This document shows, piece after piece, positions 8,868-44,094 of a stretch of DNA of 64,000 nucleotides. This DNA comes from an uncultured Actinomycetota bacterium (lineage in GTDB: Bacteria > Actinomycetota > Acidimicrobiia > Spongiisociales > UBA4744): positions 19,072-83,071 of the forward strand of contig CAVQSB010000019.1 of the NCBI GenBank assembly GCA_963715305.1, written 5' to 3'. The position numbers were made by a program, and so were the translations under genes. The notes beneath the pieces were generated by a model, which saw nothing but the letters and a program-made list of their open reading frames with translations, was not told the DNA's origin and made no database searches. The first letter of the stretch is position 1. Every line of letters begins with the position of its first letter.

Positions 8868-9217
8868 CTCGCGCTCCTGCTCTTCCTCGAAACGGCTGAG
8901 GGCCGTGAGAAACATCGCGAACAGGATCAGCGACGCCAGCATGAACGTCAGCGGGATGATGCGAATCTCGAAGGCGTTGAGACCTTCGAAATCAGCCGGG
9001 CGGGGCCGCGCGGGGCATAGAGGACGAAGAGCAGACTGTTGATCGAGGTCCAGCCGAAGGTGGCGGCCCCGGTCAGCAGAAAGGCAAGTTTCTTGCCGAG
9101 GTTGGTCCAGTTCAACAGATAGACCGACCCGAAGAACACGACGATGGAAGCCAGCGTCAACAGGATCCCGGTCACCGCCAGGTTGGCCGAAAGAATCTCC
9201 CTGAACAGTTCCCGCAT
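8868..9217 (-). CDS. Small polytopic membrane protein (possibly cytochrome oxidase subunit IV/CtaF-like), one frame change near 9005
   Basis: ORF 8948..9217 gives two TM helices. An alternative frame continues ADFEGLNAFEIRIIPLTFMLASLILFAMFLTALSRFEEEQEREKV-stop. The function is a guess from size, topology and position next to the cytochrome genes. Confidence 0.3.
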
Positions 9218-9218
9218 A

Positions 9219-10665
9219 TCAGTCCCCCGTCAGCGTGTCGCCGCGCAGATACTGCACGATCAGTTCCAGGTCATCCAGCGACAGGACCGGCCCGAAGGCA
9301 GGCATGCGTCCTGACCCGACCCCGTTGACCCCGTACGGGACTCCGTTCTCGGAGCCTTTGGTGAGGAACGTGACCATGTCGGCAGGGTTGAGGAATTGCA
9401 CGTTGGGCCGCCCGTCCCACAGAGCAGGTCCGAGGGCTCCCGAGCCGACCGGTTGGGTCAAGGCAACACCGGCCGAATAACCGGCCGTGTGGCACCGGGC
9501 ACAGTAACCGTTGAAGAGGCCGACGGCCCGGGAAGCCCGTTCCGTGTCACCGCCGAAGGTGGCGTCTGCCACGGCCGGGATGTCAATCTCCCACTTTCTG
9601 GTCCTGCTGTGCCTGCTCGAGGAAATCCAGTCCACCGACCGCCTGGGTGAGGAGCTTCTCCTGGTTGTCGGTGGTGACCTGCAGCTTGGTGGCAGCCGAC
9701 TCGAGCGCTGTGACTGCCGTTCTGGCCAGCTCGAGATCATCCTCCCCCGGCGTCGATTGCGGGTTTTCGGCATCGAGCGTGACCGCCAGGGCCGGATTGC
9801 CGAGCACGGTCCCGGCTTCGGCGAGAATCGACTGTCAGCTCCTGTTCGACCCGATCCGGAAGGCCGTCGCCGTCGACGTCGATGCCGTCGCCGGCTGCAT
9901 CCAGGGCATCCGCGGCGCGCCCGGCCAGCGCCTTGGCCGTTCCCACCTGGGACGGCGCCGCCTCGATCGAGGCGACGAGAGCGGTTTGTCTGGCAATGTC
10001 AGTCTTCCAGGAGGGTGTCGGCCGTATCCAACCGGGATAACGCTTCGTTGACCTTCCCCTCGATCTCCAGGAGCGCTTCGTCTTGGGGGATCATGAATTC
10101 CTCGGACTGCAGGTACTCCATCAACTCTTCGATCTGCTGGTCGTTCAGGGGACCACCGCCGTCGAGACCCCAGGCGGGCATCGGCGAATTGGCCCGGCCG
10201 TACACCAGCCAGAACTTGACCTCTTCCGGCGTGTACCGATAGAAGACTGAATTGATGTCCGGAGCCGACCAGGCAACGCTGATACCGCTCCGCTTCTCAA
10301 CGTAGGCAGCAACCCCTCCGCCACCGTCGACACCGTGGCAGGTGCCGCACAGGAATTCCTCGAACAGGTGGGCGCCCCGTTCCAGCGCAACCGCGTCGAA
10401 CTCTTCGACGAACCCCTCCTGGCGGCTCTGCTCACTCACGAAGTAGATGGGCAGCGAGAGCGCCAGGATCCCGGAGAGCACGACGGCGGAAGCCAGCGTC
10501 TTGTCCAGCCGTTTCGACTCGAGCCGGTCGTCGGTTATCCCGGGAGCGAGATTGGGGGCTATCTCTTCTCGGCCGCGGCCTCGCAGGCTGTTGGTACACC
10601 AGAAAGGCCAGCCAGGCGATGGCAGCCAGCGCGGCGACCGTGATGACAATGGTGCTGCTGTCCAC
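9219..10665 (-). pseudogene. Diheme cytochrome c (QcrC-like) with long linker; N-terminal TM plus heme 1 (CGTCHG), linker with several frame changes, heme 2 (CARCHTAGY)
   Basis: CxxCH motifs in ORF 9999..10682 and ORF 9219..9773. The intervening 9580..9999 region is only readable by switching among three overlapping minus-strand ORFs. The N-terminal TM (MDSSTIVITVAALAAIAWLAFLVYQ) is in ORF 10432..10665. Confidence 0.5.
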
Positions 10666-11566
10666 CTATCCCCCGATCGCAACGCAGGAAGGACCCTGCG
10701 GATAGGGAACGGTCTTGACCGAAGCGCGAGCCGGTCTGGATCACGGCGCCGGTGTCGATGATGAGGTGCCCATCCTCGGTGACTTCGATGACGAACCGAT
10801 CGAGGTTGCGGGGGGCCGGGCCACCTTCGTACTCACCGACGAAGTTGTATTTGGAACCATGGCAAGGACATTCAAAACCTTGTGAGGTCGCACACCAGGG
10901 CACCCGGCAGCCCAGGTGCACGCATTTCTGCCATAAGGCCGTGAGCCCTCCGGCGACAACACTCTTTCCTTCGAATTGAACTCCTGCAGCCTCATCGAAG
11001 GGCATGACGTAGGCGCGCGCATCGGGGATGAAGAGGGGCTGCACCGAACCATCCGGCAGGAAGACCTGGGCGCGCACGTCCTCGACCAACCCGGCGTCGA
11101 TCTTGCCGCCAAACCCTCCCGACAGCTTGGGCCAGAAGAAGGCAAGCATCGACAACCCCATCAAGCCCAGATAGCCGCCGAAGGTCGTGAGCAGCGCCCG
11201 GTTGAAGAACTGCCGGCGCGTGACGCCGGCTTCCTCGGGCGAAACCTCGACAACCCGTTGGACCTCGGCGACCGCCACGGCGGCCGATGCGGCGGCTGCA
11301 GCGGCGGGAGCCTCGACAGGTTCTCCAGGCCCTTCGTCGATTTCGTCAAGGCCTTCTTCAACCGGCTGCGGTTCGACCACCGGCGCCGGAGTTATGACCG
11401 GAGCCGACTTCTCCGAGACATCGGCGGCCCGGGTTTCCCTGGAGAGAGCCGACCGCCAGTCCGTTTCTTTCTCCCCGCCGCGCCGGTAGGCGATGGCGAA
11501 CGCCGCCAAGGCCGCCAGAAGGCACACCGCACCAATCGACACAATGAGGATCTGCTGTGTGCTCAT
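10559..11566 (-). CDS. Rieske [2Fe-2S] iron-sulfur subunit of a quinol:cytochrome c reductase (QcrA/PetC-like)
   Basis: Box I CVHLGCRV and box II CPCHGSKY, with an N-terminal TM (MSTQQILIVSIGAVCLLAALAAFAIAY). The C-terminal boundary is uncertain because the ORF runs on without a stop into the qcrC-like start. Confidence 0.7.
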   Translation of the reverse strand: MSTQQILIVSIGAVCLLAALAAFAIAYRRGGEKETDWRSALSRETRAADVSEKSAPVITPAPVVEPQPVEEGLDEIDEGPGEPVEAPAAAAAASAAVAVAEVQRVVEVSPEEAGVTRRQFFNRALLTTFGGYLGLMGLSMLAFFWPKLSGGFGGKIDAGLVEDVRAQVFLPDGSVQPLFIPDARAYVMPFDEAAGVQFEGKSVVAGGLTALWQKCVHLGCRVPWCATSQGFECPCHGSKYNFVGEYEGGPAPRNLDRFVIEVTEDGHLIIDTGAVIQTGSRFGQDRSLSAGSFLRCDRGIGGQQHHCHHGRRAGCHRLAGLSGVPTACEAAAEKR

Positions 11567-12050
11567 TCGAAGGAAATCCAGTCTTTGAGATCGTCGAACC
11601 AAATGCCGTCCGACCATGGATAGCTGAAGTTGAAGCCCGGGCCCCGGAACAGAACCCCGATGATCGTCAGGGTTGCGGAGGCAACCAGGAAGAAGGTGAA
11701 GAACGCAATGGCGAACTTGCGGTCGGACGGTTTCGTTGACGGGTTGCGGTCTACATACGGAACTGCCATCAAGCCGATCAAACCGACCACGGTCGGAACC
11801 AGGACTCCCCCGACCTGTGGATCGAAGTAGGACAGGAGTTCCTGCAAACCAAGGAAATACCAGGGTGCCTTGGACGGGTTGGGAGTCAGGTTGAAGTTGG
11901 CGAGGTCCAGAAGGGGAGCTTGCAGGATGACGCTGAGCACGACCAGCAGTGCAGTCACGGCCAGCAAAGCAACGAATTCGATCAGGAGCAGGTGCGGCCA
12001 GACGCTCACCTTGTCGGTCGGTTCGGCTTTCACCTGTTGAATCGACTTGG
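11563..12050 (-). CDS. Cytochrome b subunit IV-like (C-terminal half of cytochrome b, PetD-like) membrane domain
   Basis: PNPSKAPWYFLGLQELL, the characteristic PEWY-type motif of cyt b C-terminal domain/subunit IV, plus 3 TM helices. Upstream it is joined in-frame (after frame corrections) to the Ala/Pro linker and motif repeats at 12047..12861. Confidence 0.6.
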
Positions 12051-12861
12051 CGCGAACCACCGTTAAGAGCCGCTGCGGGCGAACCCCTTCGGGGGTTCCG
12101 GCCGGTGGAACGACCGGCGGAGCGGTGATGGTCGTGGTGCGGCCCCCCGGAGCCTCTGAAGCAGGTTCGGCAGCTGACGCAGCCGCCGCCGCCGGCGCAA
12201 CCACCGCAGCGGCTCGCGACCGCCGCGCAGGCTGCGGAGCCGCCGGAGCAGGCTCAACAACCGCGGGAGCGGGCGCTTCCGCGGCCGGTTCCGAAACCGG
12301 AGGACTCGGCGTCCCCCGGTCATCTCCGCCAGGATGTCCTCAACCGGACGACCGGTCGCCTTGGCCTTCGCCTCCGCCGAACGGCGCAACAACGCCTCAG
12401 GAATCTTCGACGCAGCCGCAGCCGCCGCCGGCGCAACCACCGCAGCAGGCTCAACAACCACCGGAGCAGGCTCAACCGCCATCCAGCGAGCACCGGTTCC
12501 GAAACCGGAGACTCGGCGTCCCCGGTCATCTCCGCCAGGATGTCCTCAACCGGACGACCGGTCGCCTTGGCCTTCGCCTCCGCCGAACGGCGCAACAACG
12601 CCTCAGGAATCTTCGACGCAGCCGCCGCCGCCGCCGGCGCAACCACCGCAGCAGGCTCAACAACCGCCGGGGCGGGCTTCGACAACCGACAAGCGCGGGT
12701 TGTTCGACATCGGCCGCTGGTTCGGCGGGTGCCTGCTGAGGCGCAGCAGCCATCTTTCCCAGCGCGTTCTCGCGAGCTGCGGCCTCCCGAGCCTGAAGAT
12801 CTTCGGGAATCGTCGTGCCGGGCGTGTCGGCGCTCACACCGCCGGAGACTTCCTCAATCAA
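12047..12861 (-). repeat. Coding tandem repeats: a copy ending near 12290 and two near-identical 206-bp copies at 12291..12496 and 12497..12700, each encoding AAVVAPAAAAAASKIPEALLRRSAEAKAKATGRPVEDILAEMTG, preceded by a divergent copy (TTIPEDLQAREAAARENALGKM); the frame is broken between copies
   Basis: ORFs 12334.. and 12540.. (plus strand) start with 42 identical residues, so the period is 206 nt. Minus-strand ORFs 12063..12482 and 12320..12685 both contain the identical peptide. Copy A reads cgtcccccggtc and copy B reads cgtccccggtc, a homopolymer-length difference. Confidence 0.65.
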
Positions 12862-12989
12862 CGCGGACGGGCTTCGGCCCCTTCGGGGGCCAGGCCCATG
12901 TCTGCCAGGACCTGCTCGAGTGGCACGCCAAGGGCCTTGGCACGCGCTTCGGCGGACCTCCGGAGAAGATGCTCTGGGATTTCGGGCAT
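12858..12989 (-). CDS. Mini-ORF (43 aa) made of one copy of the recurring module: MPEIPEHLLRRSAEARAKALGVPLEQVLADMGLAPEGAEARPR
   Basis: ATG at 12989 is preceded by AAGGAG 7 nt upstream and sits 11 nt after the cytochrome b6 stop. The ORF is below the 60-aa track threshold and was found by manual translation. Confidence 0.4.
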   Translation of the reverse strand: MPEIPEHLLRRSAEARAKALGVPLEQVLADMGLAPEGAEARPR

Positions 12990-12999
12990 GTGGTTCTCC

Positions 13000-13773
13000 T
13001 TAGAGGGGTCCCGAGATCCCGCCGTCTTTGCGTACCCGCCAGAAGTGAACGGCCATGAAGATCACGATGATGAACGGGAGGAAGAGAACATGCAGCACGT
13101 AGAAACGGAGCAGGGTGCTGCCGGTGACTTCGACGCCTCCGAGGAGGCCGAACTTGACCTGCTCACCGAAGACCGGCACGAACCCGGCCATGTTGCTGCC
13201 CACGGTCACCGCCCACAACGCCAACTGGTCCCACGGCAACAGGTAACCGGTGAAGGACAAGAGGAGGGTCAAGAACAGCAGGACCACCCCGACAACCCAG
13301 TTGAACTCACGGGGCGGTTTGTAGGCGCCGTGATAGAACACGCGCGACATGTGGAGGAACACGGTGAGCACCATGAGGTGAGCACCCCAGCGGTGCATGT
13401 TCCTGACCAGCGACCCGAAAGCGACACTCGTCGAAAGGGCCTCGATGTCGGCATAGGCGGCCGGGACCGTTGGCCGGTAGTAGAACATCAAGAAGATGCC
13501 GGTGATCGTGAGCAAGATGAAGAGGAAGAAGCTCAGGCCACCCAGACACAGGGTGTAGGAAAGCCGCACGCCGTGGCGCTTCACCTTCACCGGGTGCAGG
13601 TGATAGAGCACGTTGTTCATGATCACGTACGAGCGGTTGCGGGGGCTGTCGGTGTAGCCCTTCTTGAACGGTGACCCGGGCCGGAAGATGCTCTCCCAGG
13701 CCTGGCTGGCGCGAACCCGTTCTCCGACCTCGCCAACCCTTTCCTTGAGGCTCGTCTTGTCTCCGTTTGCCAA
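13000..13773 (-). CDS. Cytochrome b6-like (N-terminal four-helix heme-binding half of cytochrome b)
   Basis: 257 aa with 4 TM helices. His pairs are in the typical b6 positions ([38 protein letters not shown]; [22 protein letters not shown]). Split b6/subunit-IV organisation. Confidence 0.75.
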
Positions 13774-13788
13774 CGTGTTTCCCTTCCC

Positions 13789-14242
13789 TTACCAGCGCAC
13801 GCCGTACGCGTACCCGTTCTTGAAATCTCGTTGCCCGGTGTCGACGGCCCAGGGCGCTTCGGACAAACCTGCCTCGATGGCCTCGTCGGCAACCGAACCG
13901 GCGAACTTGCCGAGGGTGATCACCCCGGTCGGGCACCGGTCGATGCACAGCTGGCACCGGGTGCACTCTGACTCAGTCCACAACGAAGAAGCCGGGGGCT
14001 TCCTGGTCATCAGCCGGATTGGCGACACCGTGGGCCTCGGCGATGGCCGAGGTCGAGAGGTAGTGGATGCACTTCCAGGGGCAGATGTCGACGCAACCTT
14101 CACAGAGGATGCACTCGGACTGATCGATGTGCAGAAACTGCTTCGGTCGAAGGCCCTGCTGCACGTATTCGGTTTCCACCAGAGCCAGTTGATAGTCGTC
14201 GCGGAACGGTGGGGTCTCGAACCAGACGTCGGTGCGGGCCAT
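13789..14242 (-). pseudogene. 2x[4Fe-4S] ferredoxin-type protein, frameshift near 13975
   Basis: CILCEGCVDICPWKC in ORF 13973..14242 and CTRCQLCIDRCPTG in the 13789..14676 frame. Together they form a classical dicluster ferredoxin. ATG at 14242 abuts the stop of the upstream membrane protein. Confidence 0.5.
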
Positions 14243-14243
14243 C

Positions 14244-14870
14244 TCAGTCGCCCTTCACGAGCGGCCGGCCGTACACAGACTGCTTCTCTTCTGCGGCCGC
14301 AGAAGATGTGGCTTTGCCCCAATCCTGAAGCTTGTAGGCGAAGACGATCGCCGCTCCGAGCATCACCAGGTTGTAGGTGCCTGAGACTGCGTCTTTGATG
14401 ACGGAGTAGCTGATGTCTACCTGATTGCCGAGGACCAACCAGGGGGGGATGGTGAACAGAATCCGTTGTGACGTGAACTCGAGTGGACCCTGGGTCAGGT
14501 TGAGCCACTCGGAAGGCACGACCCCGAATATGAGAACCAGTTCGATCCAGGCGATGAAAGAGCCAAAGGTGGCACGGGCCCAGGTGAGCTTGCGACCCAT
14601 GAACCACAAGAACAAGGAACCGACGATCATCAGTTGGGAACCGCCGAATCCGATGAGCTGGCCGAGCGTGACCCATTGCCAGCCGCGGGGAATCCAGCCC
14701 AGGTAGTCGACCTGGACAGGCACCACGACACCGTCGATGATCTCGGTCTCCGGGAAGAGGGCGTAGTGGGCGATGATCACACCAACTGCCAGTGCCAGGG
14801 TCCCGAGGAGCAGGGCGACGGCACCCAGCCGCGTCCTTTGTTTCTCTGTCAGCTCGGCCAACCGGTTCAT
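14244..14870 (-). CDS. Hypothetical 4-TM membrane protein at the head of the b6 cluster
   Basis: 208-aa intact ORF with TM helices at LGAVALLLGTLALAVGVIIAHY, LMIVGSLFLWFMG, FIAWIELVLIFGVV and LVMLGAAIVFAY. No recognised family. Confidence 0.4.
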   Translation of the reverse strand: MNRLAELTEKQRTRLGAVALLLGTLALAVGVIIAHYALFPETEIIDGVVVPVQVDYLGWIPRGWQWVTLGQLIGFGGSQLMIVGSLFLWFMGRKLTWARATFGSFIAWIELVLIFGVVPSEWLNLTQGPLEFTSQRILFTIPPWLVLGNQVDISYSVIKDAVSGTYNLVMLGAAIVFAYKLQDWGKATSSAAAEEKQSVYGRPLVKGD

Positions 14871-14977: not shown

Positions 14978-15700
14978 CTATTCGACCATTCTCCGCCGAA
15001 ACAGGAGCAGGGCCAGGGCGACGGTCACCACGGTGTAGGCGAGCACCCAGGAGAAATCGGATGCGATGGCCCCGAAACCCGCACCGTCCAGCATGACATC
15101 ACGGGTTGCGTCGAGAGCGTGCGCGAATGGAAGGGCGTTTCCGACGCTTTGGAAGACACCTCCGATAGCGTCCAGATCCATCCAGGCCCCTCCGAAGATC
15201 GTCAGGAGGAGGATGACGGCGTACGCGCCTGACAACGGCGTCAGCGGCAGGACCGATCCGAGGATCATTCCCGTGCCCACGTAGAAGATCGCAGTGACCA
15301 ACAAGACAAGGACGACTAGGCCGACGCTTCCGGCCACCTCCAACCCGAGGAGCGCTCCGATGCCGTAGAGCAAGAGCGCCTGGATGATGGCGACCGGCAG
15401 ATACGGCAACGAGTAGGCGGCAACGAGGTCTCTCGCCCGAACCGGCGCGGTGAGCAATCGGGCGAAGAGGGCGGTTTCGCGGTCACGGGAGAGCGTCATG
15501 GCCGCACTGAACATCAGCATGACGAACCCGAAGAGCACAATTCCCGGCGCTAACACCGTCGGCGAGAAAAACGCATCGACACTGCCAAAGGCCTGGAGCA
15601 CGAGCAAGAGCAGCACGGGCAGCCCGATGGTGATTCCCAGCGAGAGAGGATCTCGCCAGACTTCTTTGAAGTTCCGCTTGGCCAACTCGAGGGATCTCAT
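14978..15700 (-). CDS. ABC-2 family transporter permease
   Basis: 240 aa, 6 TM, ABC-2-type pattern. Its start overlaps the upstream ATPase stop in an ATGA arrangement. Confidence 0.6.
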   Translation of the reverse strand: MRSLELAKRNFKEVWRDPLSLGITIGLPVLLLLVLQAFGSVDAFFSPTVLAPGIVLFGFVMLMFSAAMTLSRDRETALFARLLTAPVRARDLVAAYSLPYLPVAIIQALLLYGIGALLGLEVAGSVGLVVLVLLVTAIFYVGTGMILGSVLPLTPLSGAYAVILLLTIFGGAWMDLDAIGGVFQSVGNALPFAHALDATRDVMLDGAGFGAIASDFSWVLAYTVVTVALALLLFRRRMVE

Positions 15701-16642
15701 TCTCGCAACTGCTTTCCCGTGAGACGCAGGAACACGTCATCCAGGGTGACCTGCTTCCTGTACGTGGACTGGATCGTCACCCCCAGGGGTCGCAGAATGT
15801 CCTGGATGTTGTAGACGCTTGCCTGTTCGCCCTCGATCTCAACCCTTCCGTTGACGGCCCGAACCGTCGGGTAGACCTGCCGGAGGGCGTCGAAGGCAGC
15901 CTCCGAGAGGTTCTCTCGCCTCAACGACCATCACCGACGTGTCGGCGATGCCGTCTTTCAGCTGAGCGGGAGGGCCAAGCGAGACGACCTTTCCTTCGTC
16001 GATGATGGCGACCCGGTCGGCCAGCGCATCTGCCTCTTCGAGGTAGTGGGTGGTGAGCAGAATCGTCTTCTCGCCCTTGAGGCCTTCAATGTGCTCCCAG
16101 ATGGCCCTTCTCGACTGGGGATCCAGGCCGAGGGTGGGTTCGTCGAGGAACAGCACCTGGGGATCCGAGACGAGCGCCATGGCGATGCTGAGTCTGCGTT
16201 TCATGCCCCCGGAATACTTCTTGACCCGCTCCTTGGCCCGGCTCATCAGACCCATCATCTCGAGGAGATCGCCGGATCGCTTCCTTGCCTCTTGCTTGTC
16301 GAGTCCGTGCAACCCCGCCATGAGGCTCAAGTTCTCCCAGGCATTGAGACGATCGGCAATCGCCGACTCCTGTGGCGAGACGTCAATGACCGCCTTCACG
16401 GCCAGAGGATCCTTCCGGACGTCGTGACCCATGACGATGGCGGTGCCTCCGGTCGGTCTCAGCAAACAACACAGCATCTTGATGGTGGTGGTTTTGCCTG
16501 CCCCGTTGGGTCCCAGCAGCGAAAAGAGCTCGCCGCGCTCGACGTTCAGATCGATACCGTCAACGGCGACGAACTTGCCGAATGTCCTGGAGAGACTCGA
16601 TGTCTGGATGGCACATGCAATGCTTTCAGCAGGTCGGCTCAA
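15697..16642 (-). pseudogene. ABC transporter ATP-binding protein, frameshift near 15920
   Basis: Walker A LLGPNGAGKTTTIKML, signature YSGGMKRRLSIAMAL and Walker B LFLDEPTLGLD in ORF 15839..16642. The C-terminal domain is in ORF 15697..15924 in another frame. Confidence 0.65.
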
Positions 16643-16703: not shown

Positions 16704-17105
16704 TTGGTCCCTTCGACTCTGAAATTGGACCCCGAATCCCCTTGGGGTCACTGCCGCCGGGTACCTTCCGCGTTTCCCGGCCGGCGGAGTTTCTGTCATC
16801 TGGTTTCTCTTGGGTCCGGTACCGACCTCGACAACCTCATCACGTTATGTGGATATCATCACCGACTCTTCCACGAGCACGGCTGGACCGTCACCGGCCA
16901 CCCGGACCGTCACATCACCTGGCACCGCCCCGACGGCTATCCCTTCCGAGCCCGACCGCCCGCCCGACCACTCCACCAATGGAAACACACGCTCGACCTC
17001 ATGCTCCCGATCCAACCACCCGACCGGGTCGCGCCACCCCCTACCCGCTTCTACATTGACGGGCCCGCGTTCGACGGCGAGAATTGCCGCCGTTCGACGG
17101 CATGA
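16704..17105 (+). mobile_element. Remnant of an HNH endonuclease gene of the actinobacterial 13E12/DUF222-HNH type (C-terminal HNH part only)
   Basis: DLDNLITLCGYHHRLFHEHGWTVTGHPDRHITWHRPDGY matches the HNH C-terminus of REP13E12-family proteins (from memory). There is no upstream DUF222 part, so the gene is truncated. Confidence 0.45.
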
Positions 17106-17144: not shown

Positions 17145-18650
17145 ATGCTCGTGCGCCGGGCACGAAAGATTCGATTCGAGGAGGGTGAGGGGTTGGCAAC
17201 CGCCACGACCGCAGCACGGTCATCACTCGTCGATTTTCTCGCGCCCCGGGATACGGATTCGGCAGCCCGAAGGCACCTGATCGCCGCCGTCATCTTTCTG
17301 CTGGTGGCCGGCTTCTTCACCATGCTGCTCTTCGTCAAGCTTGCCTACCCCAACTTCCTGGGCGGGCAGGCCTTCACCACGTACGGCCGTCTCCGCCCGA
17401 TTGCGATCTCCGCAACGGTGCTCGGGTTCGTGACTTTGATGCACATGGCCGCCATTTACTACCTCGTACCCAGACTGACCGGGGCTCGGCTCTGGAATGA
17501 ACGGCTCGCCAACCTCGGGCTCTGGCTGGCGGTCGGCGTGAACGTGGCCGCCATCGTGGCACTGGCGGCCGGGTATTCGGATGGCCGGGAGTGGCTCGAG
17601 ATCCCCTGGTGGCTCGACATCGCGGTCGTGTGTCATGCTGCTGGTGCCGGGTGCCGTTGTGGCTCGCACCATGAAGGACCGCACCGAAGAAGGACTGTTC
17701 GTATCGCTGTGGTACTTCCTGGCCGGCCTCTTCTGGGTGGTCGGGCTCTATGTGGTCGGCAACATCCCGAATCTGTACGGAGCGGCCTCACAGATCCAGT
17801 CGTCGTTCTTCGTGTCCGGGAGTGACCGAGTTGTGGCTGATCGGCATCGGTGTCGGCACCGCCTACTACCTGGTCCCCAAGATCACGGATAGCCCGCTCT
17901 TCAATCGCCAGCTGGCGCTCATCGGATTCTGGTCGCTCGCCTTTGCCGGAGCCTGGCTTGGGCAAAGCCGGTTCATCTACGGTCCCGGCCCGGAATGGCT
18001 GGAAACGACCGCCTCTGCCTTCGCTCTAGCACTGGTGGTTGCCGCCATGGCGGTGGTCACCAACCTGGTCGGAACGATGAGCGGGAAGTGGTCGATGCTG
18101 CGGGAATCGGCTGCCCTTCGATTCACGATGGTCGGTGCCGCCCTGTACCTGATCGTGGCCCTGCTTCGTTTCCTACCCGGGCTTCGTTCGGTTGCGGTCT
18201 TCACCGGCCTGACGAGTTTCGGGGACGGCACGATGGCACTGGTGCTGTTCGGCCTGGCCGGCCTGTGGGCGGCCGCCTTCGTCTATCACGCACTCCCCCG
18301 ACTCATCGGACGCGAGATCTACTCGGAACGGCTCACCAGGGTGCACCTGCGCGGCCACCCTGATCGGAGCAGGTTCGCTGGCACTGTTGCTGTGGATGGC
18401 CGGTCTCGTCTCCGGATACTCGTGGGCGGCCGGGGCGTTGACCGGCGCCTATGTCTCCGCAGGCGAAGGCTTCGCCAACACGGTCGATCAAGTCCGCCTC
18501 GCCTACAGCCTCACGGCCCTGGCAGCACTCGTGCTCTTCGGCGGTCAGGTCGTTTTCGCCTACAACACCTATCGCACCTTCACCTCCGGCACGCCGACAG
18601 TTCATGAAGCGCTGGTAGCCGGCAAGCCCGTCGAGGTGGCCGATGAGTAA
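17145..18650 (+). pseudogene. Heme-copper oxidase subunit I homolog of the cbb3 CcoN type, with 3 frame changes (about 17625, 17820, 18360) and, as read, no canonical histidine ligands
   Basis: CcoN-like motifs recalled from memory: YGRLRPIAISATV (vs fGRLRPLHTNAV), AAIYYLVPR, EWLEIPWWLDI (vs EWPIDI), GVGTAYYLVPK (vs WGHNAVGF..MYYFVPK) and AAFVYHALPRLIGREIYS (vs ALYHLYPRLFG). Followed by ccoO with an 8-nt overlap. Confidence 0.5.
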
Positions 18651-19430
18651 CGAGACATTGGCTGCAGCTGCAGAGATCATGGGTGTACCCGAACCGCTGG
18701 TGCAACGATCCGCCCAGGCTCGCGCCCAGGTCGGTGGAATCGGTGTCGACGAAATCCTGGGGGCGTGGAGCGGCGGTGCCGCCGTCACTCCTTCGGCCGC
18801 CCCTCCCCCGGCTGCCCCACCCCCCGAGCCGGAGCCAGTTCCGAAGTCAGCCCCGGCCGCCCAAGCTGTCGAACCCGTGCCCGCCCCCACCCCACCGGCC
18901 GAGGCGGCAACGGCGGTAGCCGTCCTCGGAAACACCCATCCAGGAAGGCTCACCGGTATTGACCGGGCGCCGGGAAAGCCCTGGCTTCCCTCCTGGCCGG
19001 AGTGGTCGGCCTGTTCCTGGTCGCCGTGCTCTTTGCGCTGGTCCTGCCGGCTCTTCGACGGAATACCGCAAACACCCCCGCCGAGCGGTTTGAGTGAGCT
19101 CGGGTTGCAGGGACGAGATGTCTACGTGACCGAAGGTTGCTGGTACTGCCATACCCAACAGGTGCGGCCGATCGTGACCGATGCCAAGCTCGGACCGGTA
19201 ACCCGGGCGGACCTGCTGGCATCCTTCGCTCCCGACACGCTGGGCATCCAGCGGATCGGACCGGACCTGGCCCATGCCGGGAGCCGGGAGCCGACCAACG
19301 ATCCGGCGTGGCTGACCAAATTCCTCACCAACCCGCGTCGGTGAACCAGGACAGCCTCCAACCCGGGTACGGCCATCTGTCGGACGCCGACCTGGCGGCG
19401 CTGGTCCAGTACCTTGTGGAGTCCCGATGA
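18643..19430 (+). CDS. CcoO-like monoheme cytochrome c subunit with an extra N-terminal cytoplasmic module and Pro/Ala linker; one frame change near 19340
   Basis: GCWYCHTQQVRP...GIQRIGPDLAHAG...FLTNPR is a CcoO/NorC signature. The N-terminus (MSNETLAAAAEIMGVPEPLVQRSAQARAQVGGIGVDEILGAWSGGAA) is absent from canonical CcoO. The C-terminus continues in ORF 19137..19430 (LSDADLAALVQYLVESR) and ends in an ATGA overlap with the next gene. Confidence 0.6.
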
Positions 19431-20445
19431 GTGAGCATCTGTCCGCTGCCGCCGAATCCATGGGAGTCCCCGAATCGCTCGTGCAACGCTCCGCCCAGGC
19501 GCGCGCTGCGGCCGGCTCCATCTCCGCTGAGGACGTGCTCGCCGCCTGGGCAGGTGGAGCAGCCGCTCCTCGTAGCTCCGCCCGCTCCTGTTCCCGAACC
19601 TCCCGCCGCCGAAACTTCCGAACAACCGGCAAAGCCGGAGCCGGAGGCCGCCCCGCCGCCCCCCACCCCCAGCGCGGCACCGGTATCCGCCCCACCCGGA
19701 GAACCCCGGGCTATCCCGGCCCGACCGGTACCCGAATCCGTCGGCATGGCAGGGGCGAATGAATGGGAGTCGGTCATCACCGTCCCAACCGCCGGGCTTC
19801 GGGAGCGAACCATGACCCGGGTGCCGTCCTGGTTGACGGTCCGTCTTCGTGATCCTTCCTCTCGTCGGACTGCTCTACCTCGTGCAGTTCTCAGGAGGGC
19901 CCGACTGCGGGAACAGCGGTCTGCTGGCCGTCGATCGTGTCTCCGGGGAGGTCGTGAACTGTGACGGATCGCCGTTCGAGGGTCGGGGCGCACCCGGCGG
20001 AGGAACCACGAACTTCCTGGCCCTCGGCCAGACTCTGTATGCAGACGCCCAGGTGGCCTGCATCGGCTGCCACGGCGCCGGCGGCGAAGGTGGCGTCGGC
20101 CCGGCCTTTGCCGGAGGAGCGGTTCTCGTCACCTTCCCGACGTGCGCCGATCATGTGCAATGGGTTCAGCTGGGATCCAGCGGTTGGCAAGCCCAGGTGG
20201 GCACCGAGTACGGAGCACAAGGGACGCTCTCCAAGGGCGGCATGCCCGGCTTCGTCGACTCGCTCAGCGACGAGGAGCTTCGGTCGGTCGTCGCCTTCGA
20301 ACGGGTGAGGTTTGGTGGGGCCAACCTCGACGAAACCCTGGTTGACTGCGGCCTGGTGATCCCGGAACTACCGGTAGACGTGACGGAGGCTCCGGCCGGC
20401 GAAGGCGGGGACGCAACCACCACCACGACCGAAGCCACCGGCTAG
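19427..20445 (+). pseudogene. CcoP-like membrane-anchored cytochrome c with the same N-terminal module; 2 frame changes (about 19570, 19850)
   Basis: N-terminal MSEHLSAAAESMGVPESLVQRSAQARAAAGSISAEDVLAAWAGGAA, then a Pro/Ala/Glu linker, a TM (ILPLVGLLYLVQF) and a heme domain CIGCHGAGGEGGVGP in ORF 19849..20445. Confidence 0.5.
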
Positions 20446-20454
20446 TAGGGCCCG

Positions 20455-21285
20455 TTGGGAGAAACAACGGCCATCCATGCCGCCGATCGACCGGCCACCG
20501 CTCGCAGCCTCGCCCGCGATCTGGTCACGCTCGGGATAGCGAAACGGATGACCGTGATCGTCCATGCATCGCTTTCCCGGCTCGGTTGGGTTGCCGGGGG
20601 CGTCCCAGGCGGTGGTCGATGCCCTCCTCGACGCCATCGGCGAAGGCGGCACGTTGGTGATGCCGACCCATTCGGGCGGCCTTTCCGATCCGGCCGTCTG
20701 GCAGAACCCCCCGGTGCCCGAATCGTGGTGGCAAACCATTCGCGATGAGACGCCTCCCTACGACAAACGTCTGACCCCCACCCGGCAGATGGGTGCGATC
20801 GTCGAGTGCTTCCGCCACTACCCGGGAGTGCAGAGAAGTGATCATCCGCAGGTCTCATTTGCTGCACTCGGTCCCAACGCCGACGGGTCACCGGCGACCA
20901 TTCGCTGGAGCACCCGCTCGGCGAAGGCTCCCCGTTGGCCCGCCTCTATGATCTCGACGCCTCGATCCTCTTGCTCGGCGTCGGTCACGAGAACAACACG
21001 GCCCTGCACCTGGCCGAATATCGGGCCGACTACCCGGGCAAGGAGTGGACGGCCCAGGGCGCCCCGGTCACCATCGACGGAGAACGCCGATGGGTGAACT
21101 TCGAGGATCTCGAAGGTGACGACTCGGACTTCGCTGAGATTGGGACGGCCTTCGCCGCCTCCGGCGCTGAGCGAGCAGGGCCGGTAGGAAGCGGAACGGC
21201 CCGTCTGATGGGGATGCGGGATCTGGTCGACTTCGGCGCAGCCTGGATGACCACCCACCGGGTCAAACCGTCGGACCATCGCTAG
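20455..21285 (+). pseudogene. AAC(3)-family aminoglycoside N-acetyltransferase-like, 2 frame changes (about 20585, 20900)
   Basis: VIVHASLSRLGWVAGG, GTLVMPTHSGG, QRSDHPQVSFAALGP and LLLGVGHENNTALHLAEYRA match the AAC(3) fold family (from memory). They are spread over ORFs 20455.., 20564.. and 20935... Confidence 0.55.
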
Positions 21286-21545
21286 CCCCAACCGGACCTG
21301 CCCTTCCCCGACCGGCTCCTCGTAAACCGGGACCGAAGAAAAGCCCTCAAGGTCTCAGCGGGGTCTCCGATACCAAAGAAGGATGTGAAAGCATCCAGCC
21401 GAAGGGCTCCAATCCTTCCGCAACGCGGGGGGCGCGGTTGGTCATTCGTCGTATTTGGCCTTAGGCACGTTCAACGACCTAAGGTTTTAAAGGTAAGCCT
21501 CCCAGCCCGCCCCAACGACGAGGACCGACGGTCCCCCACCTCTTC

Positions 21546-21716: not shown

Positions 21717-22526
21717 CTAGGTCGGAGACGCGAACGAAACTGCCGTCCCTTCGGACAGGCCGAACCACTGATCCGCTCTGCCCTCCCGAACGGCCAGCGC
21801 CAGAAGGCCGTATGAATCGACATGGAGGAGCGGCTTGCCCGGCTCAACCGCTCCGTAGGCAACCACCCAGGGCAGCGTGTGGTCCCGATTCTCGATCTTG
21901 AGAGAGACCTCCGAGCCGGGACGGAGACCGAGCACGTGCAGTTCCTCCGGGCCGATGTTGGTTTGGGCGTTGCCGAACCGATCGACCCACCAGGCTTGGC
22001 CGGTGATGACGCCTCCTTCGGTTTGCGATAGCGGAAGGATGAGCGGCATCACGGCGGCCGGGTCAACTTCGCCCCCGAGATCGGAAAGTTGCGCCTCACC
22101 GGTGGCAAGAACGCCGGCCGCCGGGCCAAACCGATCCCGGCCGTCGAAGGTCGCACCTTCACTGGGAATCAGCAGTTCGGGGTTCTCGATCGCAACGATG
22201 CGCGTGGCGCCGCCAACCATGGCGACCGCGGGAGAAAGCAACCCGTTGTCGGGGCCTACAAAGAAACCCCACGGGGTCTCCGCGGCAATGGGAATCCGGG
22301 CGGTGCCAACCCCGGGATCGACAACGGCCAGCGCAACTCCCTGCGGCAGGTACTGAATCGCCCGCATCAACGTGAGGGCCCCGGCACGGACATCCCCCGG
22401 GGTCACCCCGTGCGTAACGTCGATCACCCGGCTCTCGGGGGCAATACGGGCCAGGACTCCGTGCACAACACCGACGAACTCGTCCTGATACCCGAAATCG
22501 GAAAGAAAAGAGATGGGAAGGCTCAT
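21717..22526 (-). CDS. SAM hydroxide adenosyltransferase family protein (DUF62, fluorinase/chlorinase-like SAM hydrolase)
   Basis: N-terminal ISFLSDFGYQDEFVGVVHGVL and overall 269-aa length match the DUF62 family (from memory). Intact ORF. Confidence 0.6.
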   Translation of the reverse strand: MSLPISFLSDFGYQDEFVGVVHGVLARIAPESRVIDVTHGVTPGDVRAGALTLMRAIQYLPQGVALAVVDPGVGTARIPIAAETPWGFFVGPDNGLLSPAVAMVGGATRIVAIENPELLIPSEGATFDGRDRFGPAAGVLATGEAQLSDLGGEVDPAAVMPLILPLSQTEGGVITGQAWWVDRFGNAQTNIGPEELHVLGLRPGSEVSLKIENRDHTLPWVVAYGAVEPGKPLLHVDSYGLLALAVREGRADQWFGLSEGTAVSFASPT

Positions 22527-40671: not shown

Positions 40672-43600
40672 ATGAGCCCGGAACGTGGAGGGATACGTAT
40701 GTTTGAGACAGGGACCAAGGGTCTGACGATCGACCGACGCTTCACCAAAGCCGGCGAAGACCCCTACGCATCGATCGAATGGACCCAGCGGGACTCGAAG
40801 ATCGCCAATCCGGACGGATCGGTGGTTTTTGAGATGAAAGACGCCCAGATACCGGCCGCCTGGTCGCAGGTCGCTACCGACATCATGGTTTCGAAGTACT
40901 TCCGGAAAGCCGGCATACCTCAGTACGACGAAGACGGCCGCCAACTCTTCGACGAAGACGGGGAACCCGTCCTCGGACCGGAACGCTCGGCCCGCCAGGT
41001 CTTCAACCGGCTCACCGAAACGTGGCGTTGGTGGGGTGAGCAGAACGGCTACTTCGCCTCATCGGAGGACGCCCAGGCATTCGAAGACGAACTGAAGTAC
41101 ATGCTGGCCAATCAGATGGCGGCCCCCAACAGTCCGCAGTGGTTCAACACCGGACTCAACAACGCTTACGGCTTGACCGGCCCACCCCAGGGTTTCTGGT
41201 ACGTCGATCCCGAAACGGAGGAATTGATCCCGGGACCCGACTCGTACAGTCGACCCGCTCCTCACGCTTGCTTCATCCAGGCCGTCGGCGACGACCTCGT
41301 CAATGACGGCGGCATCATGGACCTCTGGACCAAAGAAGCGCGCCTGTTCAAGTTCGGATCCGGTACCGGAACGAACTTCTCAACGATCCGGGCCGAAGGT
41401 GAGCCCCTGTCGGGAGGCGGACGATCCTCAGGTGTCATGTCGTTCCTGAAGATAGGCGACCGGGCGGCCGGCGCCATCAAGTCCGGTGGCACCACTCGCC
41501 GGGCAGCCAAGATGGTGATCCTCGACGTCGACCACCCGGACATCGAAGCGTTCATCAGCTGGAAGAAGGTCGAGGAAGAGAAGGCCAAGATCCTCATAGC
41601 CAACGGATTCCCGGCCGATTTCAACGGCGAGGCCTATCAAACCGTTTCGGGGCAGAACTCGAACAACTCCGTGCGGGTTACCCAGCAGTTCCTGCAAAGG
41701 GTCATCGAAGACGGTGACTGGGACCTGGTCGAACGCTCGACCGGAGCGGTGCGTCGGTCGGTCAAGGCTCGCCACATCTGGCGGACGATTGCCGATGCCG
41801 CCTGGGCTTGTGCCGACCCCGGCATGCAGTTCGACACAACGATCAACGAATGGCACACGTGCCCGGAGGGTGGACGGATCCGCGCCTCCAACCCGTGCTC
41901 GGAGTACATGTTCCTGGACAACACGGCCTGCAATCTGGCCAGCCTCAATCTGGTCAAGTTCTACAACGACGACACCGGGGCCTTCAATGTCGAAGCCTAC
42001 GAACACGCCATCCGCATCTGGACGATGGTCCTGGAGATCTCCGTCACCATGGCCCAGTTCCCTTCCCGGGACATTGCCCTTGGTTCCTACGAGTACCGGA
42101 CGCTCGGCCTCGGGTACGCCAACATCGGTTCGCTCTTGATGCGGTCGGGGATTCCCTACGACTCGGACGAGGGACGCGCCATCGCCGGAGCCCTCACCTC
42201 CATCCTCACCGGACGTGCCTACGCAACGTCGGCGGAGATGGCAGGTGCGATCGGTCCTTTCCCGCGTTTCTGGGAGAACCGGGACCACATGCTGCGGGTG
42301 ATCCGCAACCACCGGCGGGCGGCCCACGACGCACCCATCGAGGAGTACGAAGGCATCACCCACTACGTGATGCCCCTCGACCCCACGATGGCACCAGGAC
42401 CGCTGGTCGAAGCAGCCCGCCGCGCCTGGGATGCGGCCCTTGAGTCTGGTGAGACCAACGGCTTCCGCAATGCCCAAGCCAGCGTCCTCGCTCCGACCGG
42501 AACCATCGGCCTCCTGATGGATTGCGATACCACCGGCGTCGAACCCGACTTCGCCCTCGTGAAGTTCAAGAAACTGGCCGGGGGTGGCTATTTCAAGATC
42601 GCCAACCAGTCGATCGCCTCGGCTCTGCGTCGGCTCGGGTATGGCGAGGATCAGATCGAACGAATCGTGCGGTACGTCGTCGGGACCATGACGCTCGATG
42701 GCACGCCTCATGTGAACCGGGCAAGTTTGTCTGAGCATGGACTGCCCGACGATGCGATCGACAAGATCGAAGCGGCGCTCCCCAGCGTCTTCGACCTCCG
42801 GCACGCCTTCAACGCCTATGTGCTCGGGGAAGCGACCATGGACGCGATTGGTATTCCGCCCGATCGCTACCTGGCCTCCGGGTTTGACTTGCTGGCCTCC
42901 CTCGGTTTCTCCAGGAACCAGGTGATCGAGGCCAACGACGTGATCTGCGGCCGCCAGACCATCGAAGGCGCCCCGGAGTTGGACCCCGAACACCTCCCGG
43001 TTTTCGATACGGCCAACAAGAACGGCAAGAACGGGAAGCGGTTCATCCATCACAACGGTCACATCAAAATGATGGCGGCGACGCAACCGTTCATCTCGGG
43101 AGCCATCTCGAAGACCATCAACATGCCCCATGAGGTCACGACCGAGGAGATCGAAGGCGCCTACATGCTGTCGGCCGATCTCGGCCTGAAAGCCATGGCC
43201 CTCTACCGGGACGGCTCAAAAGCCTCCCAGCCGCTGTCGTCGACGTCCGACGAGGGCGACGATCAGGAGGAGGCCCAGGAGATCAACGCGGCCCTGATTG
43301 AGGAGAAGGCGTATGCCTGGGGTCGTATCCCCGCAGGGGTCTCACCGACGGAGGCCTACGACCGGGGCATGCAACCGCCTCGCTTCCTACTGCCTGCCCG
43401 GCGTGCCGGGTTCACGCAGGAAGCTCGCATCGGGGGCCACAAGGTGTTCCTCCGTACCGGCGAATACGAGGACGGGACGCTCGGCGAACTCTTCATCGAT
43501 CTCGCCAAAGAGGGCGCGACCTTGCGCGGGATCCTCTCCTGCTTCGCCATTGCGGTGTCCAAGGGACTCCAGTACGGCGTGCCCCTCGAGGAGTTCGTCG

Positions 43601-44094
43601 ATACGTTCACGTTCCAGACGTTCGAACCTCGCGGCATGGTCGAGGGCCATCCCAACATCAAGATGGCCAACTCGATCGTCGACTACGTGTTCCGGGCGTT
43701 GGGCGTTGAGTACCTCGAGCGCGACGAGCTGGCCCAGGTGCCTCCGGTCCGGGAGATGGAATTGCCGGAGCCGGCCAAAGGGCTCGCCGTTGAAGCCGGC
43801 GTCCAGCTCGACCTGACCGATGCGGCCATGGAAAAGGACATCGACGTCCAGGTGGCTGCTGCCAATTTCGCCGATACGCAGCATGCGCCAAATGGATCGA
43901 ACGGCGGCACCACTCGACAGCCGGCCCGGGCGGCAACGGTCACGGTCTCCGACGCGGGGACAGCCTCGGTGCAATCGGCTCTGGCGGCCATGATGGGAGA
44001 TGCTCCCCTCTGCGAGACCTGCGGCCACATCACCATCCGCTCGGGCAGCTGCTACAAGTGCCTCAACTGCGGCGGTACGACGGGATGCAGCTGA
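40672..44094 (+). CDS. nrdJ: Vitamin B12-dependent (class II) ribonucleoside-diphosphate reductase NrdJ, long form
   Basis: 1140-aa uninterrupted ORF with class II RNR hallmarks throughout, for example the active-site region NPCSEYMFLDNTACNLASLNL and the C-terminal CxxC...CxxC tail CETCGHITIRSGSCYKCLNCGG. Confidence 0.9.
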   Translation: MSPERGGIRMFETGTKGLTIDRRFTKAGEDPYASIEWTQRDSKIANPDGSVVFEMKDAQIPAAWSQVATDIMVSKYFRKAGIPQYDEDGRQLFDEDGEPVLGPERSARQVFNRLTETWRWWGEQNGYFASSEDAQAFEDELKYMLANQMAAPNSPQWFNTGLNNAYGLTGPPQGFWYVDPETEELIPGPDSYSRPAPHACFIQAVGDDLVNDGGIMDLWTKEARLFKFGSGTGTNFSTIRAEGEPLSGGGRSSGVMSFLKIGDRAAGAIKSGGTTRRAAKMVILDVDHPDIEAFISWKKVEEEKAKILIANGFPADFNGEAYQTVSGQNSNNSVRVTQQFLQRVIEDGDWDLVERSTGAVRRSVKARHIWRTIADAAWACADPGMQFDTTINEWHTCPEGGRIRASNPCSEYMFLDNTACNLASLNLVKFYNDDTGAFNVEAYEHAIRIWTMVLEISVTMAQFPSRDIALGSYEYRTLGLGYANIGSLLMRSGIPYDSDEGRAIAGALTSILTGRAYATSAEMAGAIGPFPRFWENRDHMLRVIRNHRRAAHDAPIEEYEGITHYVMPLDPTMAPGPLVEAARRAWDAALESGETNGFRNAQASVLAPTGTIGLLMDCDTTGVEPDFALVKFKKLAGGGYFKIANQSIASALRRLGYGEDQIERIVRYVVGTMTLDGTPHVNRASLSEHGLPDDAIDKIEAALPSVFDLRHAFNAYVLGEATMDAIGIPPDRYLASGFDLLASLGFSRNQVIEANDVICGRQTIEGAPELDPEHLPVFDTANKNGKNGKRFIHHNGHIKMMAATQPFISGAISKTINMPHEVTTEEIEGAYMLSADLGLKAMALYRDGSKASQPLSSTSDEGDDQEEAQEINAALIEEKAYAWGRIPAGVSPTEAYDRGMQPPRFLLPARRAGFTQEARIGGHKVFLRTGEYEDGTLGELFIDLAKEGATLRGILSCFAIAVSKGLQYGVPLEEFVDTFTFQTFEPRGMVEGHPNIKMANSIVDYVFRALGVEYLERDELAQVPPVREMELPEPAKGLAVEAGVQLDLTDAAMEKDIDVQVAAANFADTQHAPNGSNGGTTRQPARAATVTVSDAGTASVQSALAAMMGDAPLCETCGHITIRSGSCYKCLNCGGTTGCS

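Follow-up and report, generated by a model that had tools for sequence, protein, structure and literature searches.

The sequence analysed here is a 64-kb stretch of contig CAVQSB010000019.1 from an uncultured member of the Acidimicrobiia (hereafter the window), in which a CcoN-like protein is encoded at 17196..18650 on the forward strand. Genes for a CcoO/FixO-like and a CcoP-like cytochrome c follow on the same strand, and the genes of a Rieske/cytochrome b cluster lie on the opposite strand. The CcoN-like gene, interrupted by three frame changes in this assembly, encodes 484 amino acids (aa) once three inserted bases are removed, and the resulting protein carries none of the six histidines that bind haem and copper in CcoN. 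An earlier note on this DNA, made without database searches, had already suggested the loss of all six, and alignment to a CcoN of known structure and to 120 database sequences confirmed it.

The CcoN-like gene and its metal-ligand columns

The coding pieces between 17145 and 18650 (+) number four, in frames 0, 1, 2 and 0, and join to a product of 484-502 aa. The longest open reading frame (ORF) opens at ATG 17145, and a TTG at 17196 with GAGGAGG upstream is the likely start. Our intact reference ortholog, P0001 on locus L001, is 97% identical to the window protein. Pfam COX1 (PF00115) matches the joined protein with E = 2.2e-43 and 149.2 bits (gathering cutoff 34.8) over profile positions 3-433 of 436, whereas the NCBIfam ccoN model TIGR00780, with an equivalog cutoff of 583 bits, gives it 196.3 bits after frame correction and gives 113 bits to the ortholog on locus L002. 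Because a full-length COX1 match is combined here with so low an equivalog score, the window protein is, as far as its sequence tells, a member of the haem-copper oxidoreductase superfamily whose nearest kin is CcoN, although its score leaves it well short of being a true one. The earlier note had named a lack of similarity to the haem-copper oxidases as an outcome that would overturn its proposal, and the COX1 match speaks to the contrary; the CcoN landmarks it listed (GRLRP, YYLVPR/YYLVPK, EWLEIPWWLDI and YHALPRLIGREIYS) are all found in the window protein.

In the numbering of Pseudomonas stutzeri CcoN, low-spin haem b is bound by His60 and His347, haem b3 by His345 and CuB by His207, His257 and His258. 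These columns were read from a phmmer alignment to the P. stutzeri protein (3mk7_A; E = 1e-34) and from a MAFFT alignment with the 120 best database hits. An alanine codon (17403..17405, +) occupies the His60 column within YGRLRPIAIS, in agreement with the earlier reading of RPIAIS in place of RPLHTN. The His207 column holds the serine of FFVSGVTE, which is located right at the second frame-change site and is also serine in intact P0001. Serine and arginine codons (17966..17971, +) stand at the His257/His258 columns in GQSRFIY, and the stretch D-G-T-M-A (18224..18238, +), within GDGTMAL, places threonine and alanine at the His345 and His347 columns, with an aspartate two residues ahead of the former haem b3 ligand. 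Thus the six columns of the window protein read A, S, S, R, T and A. Scoring them was the check that the earlier note had proposed, and histidine is found in none. The note's own manual registers fared less well: it misplaced the CuB motif (LIGIGVG) by 7 residues, the HH pair (GPGPEW) by about 6 and the HVH motif (FGDGTMALV) by 3, and its conclusion of histidine loss holds all the same, there being no histidine in the CuB, HH or HVH helices under either register.

The MAFFT alignment splits cleanly. All 52 proteins of the His-less family (intact, 439-600 aa, 34-97% identical to the query) have 0/6 ligand histidines, and all 68 other hits have 6/6; the latter are canonical CcoN, mostly named for Acidobacteriota-type taxa. 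At the level of related loci, 82 of 85 have 0/6; L060 and L073 retain His257 alone, and a locus from a Nitrospinota metagenome-assembled genome (MAG) encodes a canonical CcoN. The changes reach beyond the ligands. The cross-link tyrosine of helix VII, Tyr251, is gone, its column being Gly/Ala in the His-less family versus Tyr in 99% of canonical sequences, and at T215, S240 and Y317, which we take to be residues of the KC proton channel, the polar residues of canonical CcoN are replaced by apolar ones. In P0001, the start of transmembrane helix 2, helix 6, the end of helix 7 and the start of helix 10 contain no histidine whatsoever, and mean histidine content is 4.4 in the His-less family versus 12.5 in canonical CcoN (methionine, 8.5 versus 19.8). 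Around the two former haem sites, the His-less family alignment shows no pair of conserved His, Met or Cys residues. Many structural residues are retained, among them R55, Y79, R83, W162, Y223/Y224, W245 and W267. Because all six ligand histidines and the cross-link tyrosine are lost, the predicted protein cannot reduce O2 or NO through known chemistry.

The fold has been kept. The AlphaFold2 model of intact P0001 (predicted local distance difference test score, pLDDT, 88.1; predicted template modelling score, pTM, 0.89) consists of twelve long helices, the arrangement of C-family oxidases, and its best Foldseek match is CcoN 3mk7_A, with template modelling (TM) scores of 0.88/0.91 and a root-mean-square deviation (rmsd) of 2.6 Å. 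CcoN chains as a group score 0.88-0.91 (rmsd 2.3-2.7 Å), ahead of NorB (0.77-0.85) and of A/B-type subunit I (about 0.75). The His-less family also has conserved residues of its own that differ in canonical CcoN: His28 (94%), Glu165 (93%), Arg238 (91%), Arg373 (97%), a C-terminal TSG...E motif, and an acidic residue, D/E344, which is conserved to 95% and lies two residues ahead of the column that once bound haem b3. His28 (17274..17276, +) sits at the cytoplasmic start of transmembrane helix 1, where canonical CcoN has no ligand. Judged by CcoN topology and the helices of the model, all of these residues except D/E344 would lie on the cytoplasmic face, and because they cluster there the model suggests a new cytoplasmic interaction surface.

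Frame changes and selection on the gene

Global DNA alignment of the window gene to its intact ortholog on L001 revealed exactly three insertions of one base each, at 17631, 17816 and 18352 (all +), the second of them falling between FFVSG and VTE in the motif that holds the former CuB His207 column. Orthologs with an unbroken frame, 480-500 aa long, are as much as 97% identical to the window protein. Against L001, the frame-corrected window gene has a ratio of nonsynonymous to synonymous divergence (dN/dS) of 0.075 (dN 0.010, dS 0.136). Other ortholog pairs gave 0.11-0.16 and the L007-L011 pair 0.089, comparisons of L007 and L011 with the remaining loci being left out owing to a codon-mapping fault that produced values above 1. 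Because dN/dS is this low both against L001 and in the other pairs, the CcoN-like gene is under strong purifying selection, in the window's own lineage included.

Breaks of frame are common in this assembly. A self-trained codon model counted 9.7 same-strand frame switches per 10 kb in the window (62 in 64 kb), with a median coding run of 294 nt, as compared with 3.7-6.1 switches per 10 kb and coding runs of 520-840 nt in clean related loci; such counts take in true gene boundaries, so that only the excess over the clean controls, here about twofold, is meaningful. Several other genes are split as well: an AAC(3) aminoglycoside acetyltransferase gene at 20564-21285 (+), of which two ORFs match profile positions 12-108 and 127-232, the gene for an ABC transporter ATPase (15697-16642, -) and a ferredoxin gene (13789-14242, -). 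The closest relative, a MAG taken to be a long-read assembly from its Flye-style contig name (contig_16425), has the CcoN-like gene intact and has broken genes that are whole in the window. Because frame breaks occur window-wide and split unrelated genes too, the three frame changes are most likely indel errors of the assembly and not biology. Programmed frameshifting was considered and rejected: it would require three separate +1 events, and all orthologs are in frame. Break density is uneven along the window, high at 5-20 kb and 25-29 kb and low at 35-45 kb. The longest unbroken gene in the window encodes a class II (B12-dependent) ribonucleotide reductase of 1123 aa with a TSCPD domain (40714-44083, +).

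Partner cytochromes and the divergent Rieske/cytochrome b cluster

The start of the CcoO/FixO-like gene (18643..19430, +; frame-broken) overlaps the stop of the CcoN-like gene. It encodes a monohaem cytochrome c with CWYCH at 19138-19152 and with glutamine at the axial-methionine column, in SLQPGYGH (19353-19376). An ATGA overlap joins to it the gene for a membrane-anchored, CcoP-like monohaem cytochrome c (19427..20445, +; frame-broken), with CIGCH at 20059-20073 and GGMPGF at 20236-20253. The earlier note had described intact, CxxCH-containing ccoO/ccoP-like genes with ATGA coupling; the haem motifs and the overlapping codons are there, but in the window neither gene is intact. In clean assemblies the stop/start overlaps among the operon genes measure 4-8 nt, and a FixO-like gene with CxxCH and then a cytochrome c gene lie downstream in 74 of 79 loci, the third subunit being monohaem. 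EGCxxCHTQ and R.GPDL are likewise retained by the CcoO-like protein in 74 of the 79. The partners are nonetheless non-canonical, since most lineages have lost the axial methionine of the CcoO-like protein: 52 distinct sequences have histidine at this column, 9 have glutamine (SLQPGY, in the window's clade), and methionine is left in only 8 besides the canonical control. The few lineages in which it survives include L060 and L073, which both keep one CuB histidine. The CcoP-like and dihaem cytochromes retain Met-containing motifs.

A profile search of 1.84 billion representatives recovered many further ligand-less relatives, about 30 of which are CcoN-CcoO fusions (613-753 aa) with one C-terminal CxxCH; one fused gene was found inside the same ten-gene cluster as described below. 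In a crude neighbour-joining tree, fused and unfused ligand-less proteins form one clade of 81 non-redundant sequences, each with at most one of the six ligand histidines.

A scan of one genome per species yielded 234 relatives, the best 80 of which are almost all Acidimicrobiia MAGs, some carrying other phylum labels. Gene order was followed by tblastn with ten proteins from a clean contig of 2.56 Mb (L002), and wherever a His-less locus has sufficient flanking sequence the same ten genes recur in unchanged order, amounting to about 65-70 full-length cases. One strand carries the CcoN-like gene, the FixO/CcoO-like gene and a gene for a monohaem cytochrome c of about 320 aa. Head-to-head on the other strand are genes for a membrane protein of about 210 aa, a 149-aa ferredoxin-like protein with two [4Fe-4S] clusters, a b6-type cytochrome b, a subunit IV-like protein, a Rieske protein, a dihaem cytochrome c of 480-590 aa and a membrane protein of about 119 aa. 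This arrangement holds across 34-97% identity in essentially all loci outside the window's clade, and it is this linkage to Rieske/cytochrome b6 genes that hints most strongly at what the CcoN-like protein may do.

In the window, the first of these genes in most relatives' divergent half is found at 14244..14870 (-) and encodes a conserved 208-aa, four-helix membrane protein, for which no match was found in Pfam, NCBIfam or the PDB and whose AlphaFold2 model is of poor quality (pLDDT 68.8). The ferredoxin-like gene follows at 13789..14242 (-), with one frame break near 13975 and cluster motifs at 14078-14113 and 13930-13965; inspection of the protein sequence, made without a predictor, revealed no obvious export signal. 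Next to it, at 13000..13788 (-), is the gene for the N-terminal half of a b6-type cytochrome b, a pairing conserved in all related loci. This cytochrome b contains YTLCLGG (13537-13557), with the cysteine that binds haem ci in b6f complexes; its closest solved relative is the b6 of b6f (E = 7e-48), and its L002 ortholog scores 307.9 bits against the NCBIfam model ExtP (cutoff 290). The conserved adjacency of the cytochrome b and ferredoxin-like genes, together with the absence of a visible export signal, suggests that the Rieske/cytochrome b complex has an iron-sulfur subunit of its own on the n-side. Further along are a frame-broken subunit IV-like gene (cytochrome b C-terminal, PetD-like; 11569..12989, -), a Rieske [2Fe-2S] protein gene with CVH...CPCH at 10859-10924 (10694..11566, -), a frame-broken gene for a membrane-anchored dihaem cytochrome c with CGTCH at 10335-10349 and CARCH at 9489-9503 (9225..10604, -), and the last gene of the cluster, for the conserved membrane protein of about 119 aa, with one frame break (8871..9217, -).

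The two operons are also tied together by a domain of about 45 aa that the subunit IV-like, CcoO-like and CcoP-like proteins have in common at their N-termini (blastp E values 1e-9 to 3e-21). Its consensus resembles PE.LVQRSAEARA...V.VEE.LAAW, a Pro/Ala-rich linker follows it, and Pfam gave no match for it. Copies lie at 18649-18777 (CcoO-like) and 19427-19570 (CcoP-like), both on the forward strand; in the CcoO-like protein the domain is cytoplasmic. The subunit IV-like gene as assembled in the window contains three apparent tandem copies, at 12897-12989, 12497-12613 and 12315-12407.

Only in the window's clade have genes been inserted between the cluster halves: those of an ABC-2 transporter, with its permease at 14978-15700 and its ATPase at 15697-16642 (-), and a fragment (16704-17105) that has an HNH-like motif but no Pfam hit. 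At this site L001 has a full DUF222/HNH gene, which is lacking in the window. Conversely, a stretch of about 800 bp with the AAC(3)-type acetyltransferase gene (20455-21309) is present in the window and absent from the otherwise syntenic L001. In some relatives (flanks of L003 and L005) the cluster lies beside a nuo (complex I) operon, and recurring near it are genes for a Rex-like regulator, a glutaredoxin-like protein and an S-adenosylmethionine (SAM) hydroxide adenosyltransferase, the last found in the window at 21717-22526 (-). Searches by tblastn with a canonical CcoN and with a bovine COX1 sequence, the latter run without a positive control, found no other haem-copper oxidase gene, either within the 64 kb of the window or within 10 kb on each side of 88 loci; this result does not extend to the genome beyond them.

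Related systems and possible roles

The closest counterpart of the window protein is CcoN itself, as represented by the P. stutzeri structures 3MK7 and 5DJQ. Both share the 12-helix fold at 23-32% identity, the motifs YGRxRP, YYxxPR, GFWSLA, PxW and LPR, and downstream genes for CcoO-like and CcoP-like cytochromes c with overlapping stop and start codons. Unlike CcoN, the window family has no ligand histidine and no cross-link tyrosine, has a TIGR00780 score a third of the cutoff, and carries the new conserved residues of the cytoplasmic face and D/E344. No ccoQ or ccoGHIS was seen near the CcoN-like gene. NorB of the cytochrome c-dependent nitric oxide reductases belongs to the same superfamily and is the second-best fold match, but it keeps its six histidines, along with a Glu cluster for FeB, and the His-less proteins are clearly nearer to CcoN in both sequence and fold.

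The bc1-cbb3 supercomplexes of Rhodobacter capsulatus (6XKW) and Pseudomonas aeruginosa (8SMR, 9G83), whose structures are among the best fold matches, likewise bring together a Rieske/cytochrome b complex, a CcoN/O/P module and cytochromes c anchored in the membrane. They contain a working cbb3 oxidase and a long, bc1-type cytochrome b; here the genes for the two sets lie head-to-head, the core is ligand-less, the b6-like cytochrome b is split and has the haem-ci cysteine, and a ferredoxin-like subunit is encoded. A split cytochrome b is also found in b6f, Firmicute-type b6c and ExtP/ExtQ-type complexes, with which the present cluster further shares the haem-ci cysteine. It differs from them in its subunit set, namely its dihaem cytochrome c, 149-aa protein with two [4Fe-4S] clusters, two membrane proteins and ligand-less CcoN module.

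A subunit I homolog without any metal ligands has been described in Acetobacter, where a 'deranged' COX1-like protein of the A family was proposed to have a structural role; it is retained as part of a conserved cluster, with ctaB as a neighbour, and occurs only in acetic acid bacteria (PMC10715153). This is the nearest, and the only, precedent that we found. The window protein differs in being of the C family, as its best fold and sequence matches are CcoN, in having no ctaB called in the flanks shown, in being coupled or fused to a haem-c CcoO and linked to Rieske/cytochrome b6 genes, and in belonging to a family that spans the class Acidimicrobiia with deep divergence. In the literature that we searched, neither a CcoN without ligands nor this gene cluster and subunit set is described.

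Taken with this context, we consider it probable, though well short of certain, that the protein is a selectively maintained C-family ex-oxidase that has become a cofactor-less scaffold holding c-type cytochromes inside, or adjacent to, a Rieske/cytochrome b complex of the b6 type; we draw this role from sequence, fold and gene context. The former oxidase subunit would be a membrane pseudo-enzyme anchoring the CcoO-like and CcoP-like haem domains beside the Rieske/cytochrome b complex, in an arrangement like that of a bc1-cbb3 supercomplex with its oxidase core switched off. From quinol, electrons would pass through the Rieske protein, the dihaem cytochrome c and the CcoO/CcoP-like cytochromes, and the final acceptor would lie elsewhere, for instance in a separate A-type oxidase. 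A more far-reaching version, which we put forward tentatively and hold to be somewhat doubtful, is that an ancestral cbb3 oxidase was turned into a cofactor-less but indispensable subunit of an undescribed respiratory assembly, distributed Acidimicrobiia-wide and, in its fused form, in related lineages. Such an assembly would comprise the b6-type Rieske/cytochrome b complex, a cytoplasmic ferredoxin with two [4Fe-4S] clusters, the dihaem cytochrome c and the 'dead' CcoN/CcoO/CcoP module, its subunits tied by the common N-terminal cytoplasmic domain; at its strongest, the ex-oxidase core might have taken on a new job, conducting or gating ions or protons via the conserved buried D/E344.

Several points weigh against the scaffold. 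The absence of haem b, haem b3 and copper from the subunit is deduced from the missing canonical ligands, and its association with the Rieske/cytochrome b complex from gene order and shared domains. In the window's clade, moreover, the ABC transporter and the HNH remnant put 4-5 kb of unrelated genes between the two cluster halves. The exchange of methionine for histidine or glutamine at the CcoO-like haem would probably lower its potential, which fits poorly with a simple downhill path from the Rieske centre. The conserved D/E344 at the former active site and the new His28 could point to a function beyond scaffolding. Lastly, frame breaks are denser in the stretch from the ccoN-like gene to the cytochrome c genes than in the window on average, and a very recent, real inactivation in this single strain is possible.

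Two rival readings are judged very improbable. One is that the histidines are present but shifted in the alignment, the protein being an ordinary cbb3 oxidase, to which we assign next to no probability: the manual registers of the earlier note were indeed wrong at three motifs, but phmmer against 3mk7_A, MAFFT alignments of 120-270 sequences and hmmscan concur independently, the relevant helices of P0001 are His-free and the TIGR00780 score is far below its cutoff, so that mis-registration is ruled out as the source of the loss. The other, a former ccoN gene being lost in this organism, with substitutions and frameshifts both products of decay, is suggested by three frame changes within 1.5 kb, by the broken ccoO-like and cytochrome c genes adjoining and by the raised local break density. 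Against it, orthologs down to about 34% identity are intact and equally His-less, nonsynonymous divergence from L001 is merely about 1%, the breaks elsewhere in the window strike unrelated genes, the nearest relative keeps this gene whole while others there are broken, and gene order is preserved in about 80 species-level genomes. Decay is thereby largely refuted for the family, and we regard it as very improbable overall. The earlier note had left the choice open between scaffold and decayed gene; its pseudo-oxidase is supported by the ligand-less state of 52 of 52 proteins and 82 of 85 loci, and the intact orthologs, the low dN/dS and the conserved gene order tell against its decayed gene.

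Two further readings were weighed. The protein might be a redox enzyme or ion translocator of non-canonical chemistry, with a cofactor or cation held by, for example, D/E344, His28 or a tyrosine at the His347 column, and with electron transfer at the attached c-type haems coupled to ion movement or to a new substrate. Strong purifying selection across the whole 12-helix core, the nearly invariant acidic residue at the former binuclear site, conserved His28 and the retention of c-type haem partners would all fit such a role; the lack of a conserved His, Met or Cys pair near the former haem sites, the low histidine and methionine contents, the position of His28 far from the haem sites in CcoN topology and the apolar residues at the presumed KC channel do not, and we judge it unlikely. 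Less likely still, the module could be independent of the Rieske/cytochrome b cluster, its adjacency historical, and act as a stand-alone membrane-anchored cytochrome c carrier, such as a donor to an aa3 oxidase or to an extracellular acceptor. The operon is conserved even where the cluster halves are far apart, and coupling within it is strong while the link across the cluster is purely genomic; but the head-to-head order persists in essentially all other loci, over the full range of identity, and the same N-terminal domain is found on subunit IV and on both cytochromes of the CcoN operon.

Cbb3 oxidases are commonly taken as markers of high-affinity, low-oxygen respiration. Annotation pipelines label the proteins described here 'cbb3-type cytochrome c oxidase subunit I', and in MAG studies cbb3 oxidases are credited to Acidimicrobiia on the strength of annotation (PMC8357290). 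By its predicted sequence, the 'cbb3 oxidase' annotated in Acidimicrobiia is almost certainly not an oxidase, and if the subunit has no metal site, such low-oxygen inferences would be wrong for a class widespread in soil, freshwater and marine habitats. The family would also be a clear case of a catalytic core turned pseudo-enzyme and held under strong selection for very long, one in which it can be tested what the parts of a haem-copper oxidase contribute aside from catalysis. It also draws attention to a highly conserved but uncharacterised Rieske/cytochrome b6 assembly in Actinomycetota, which would have a ferredoxin-like subunit dedicated to it. In our library of representatives (P0121-P0268; L087/L088), many other CcoN-like proteins have 0-3 of the six ligand histidines, including the ligand-less CcoN-CcoO fusion clade and lineages scattered among canonical CcoN; ligands may have been lost in C-family oxidases more than once.

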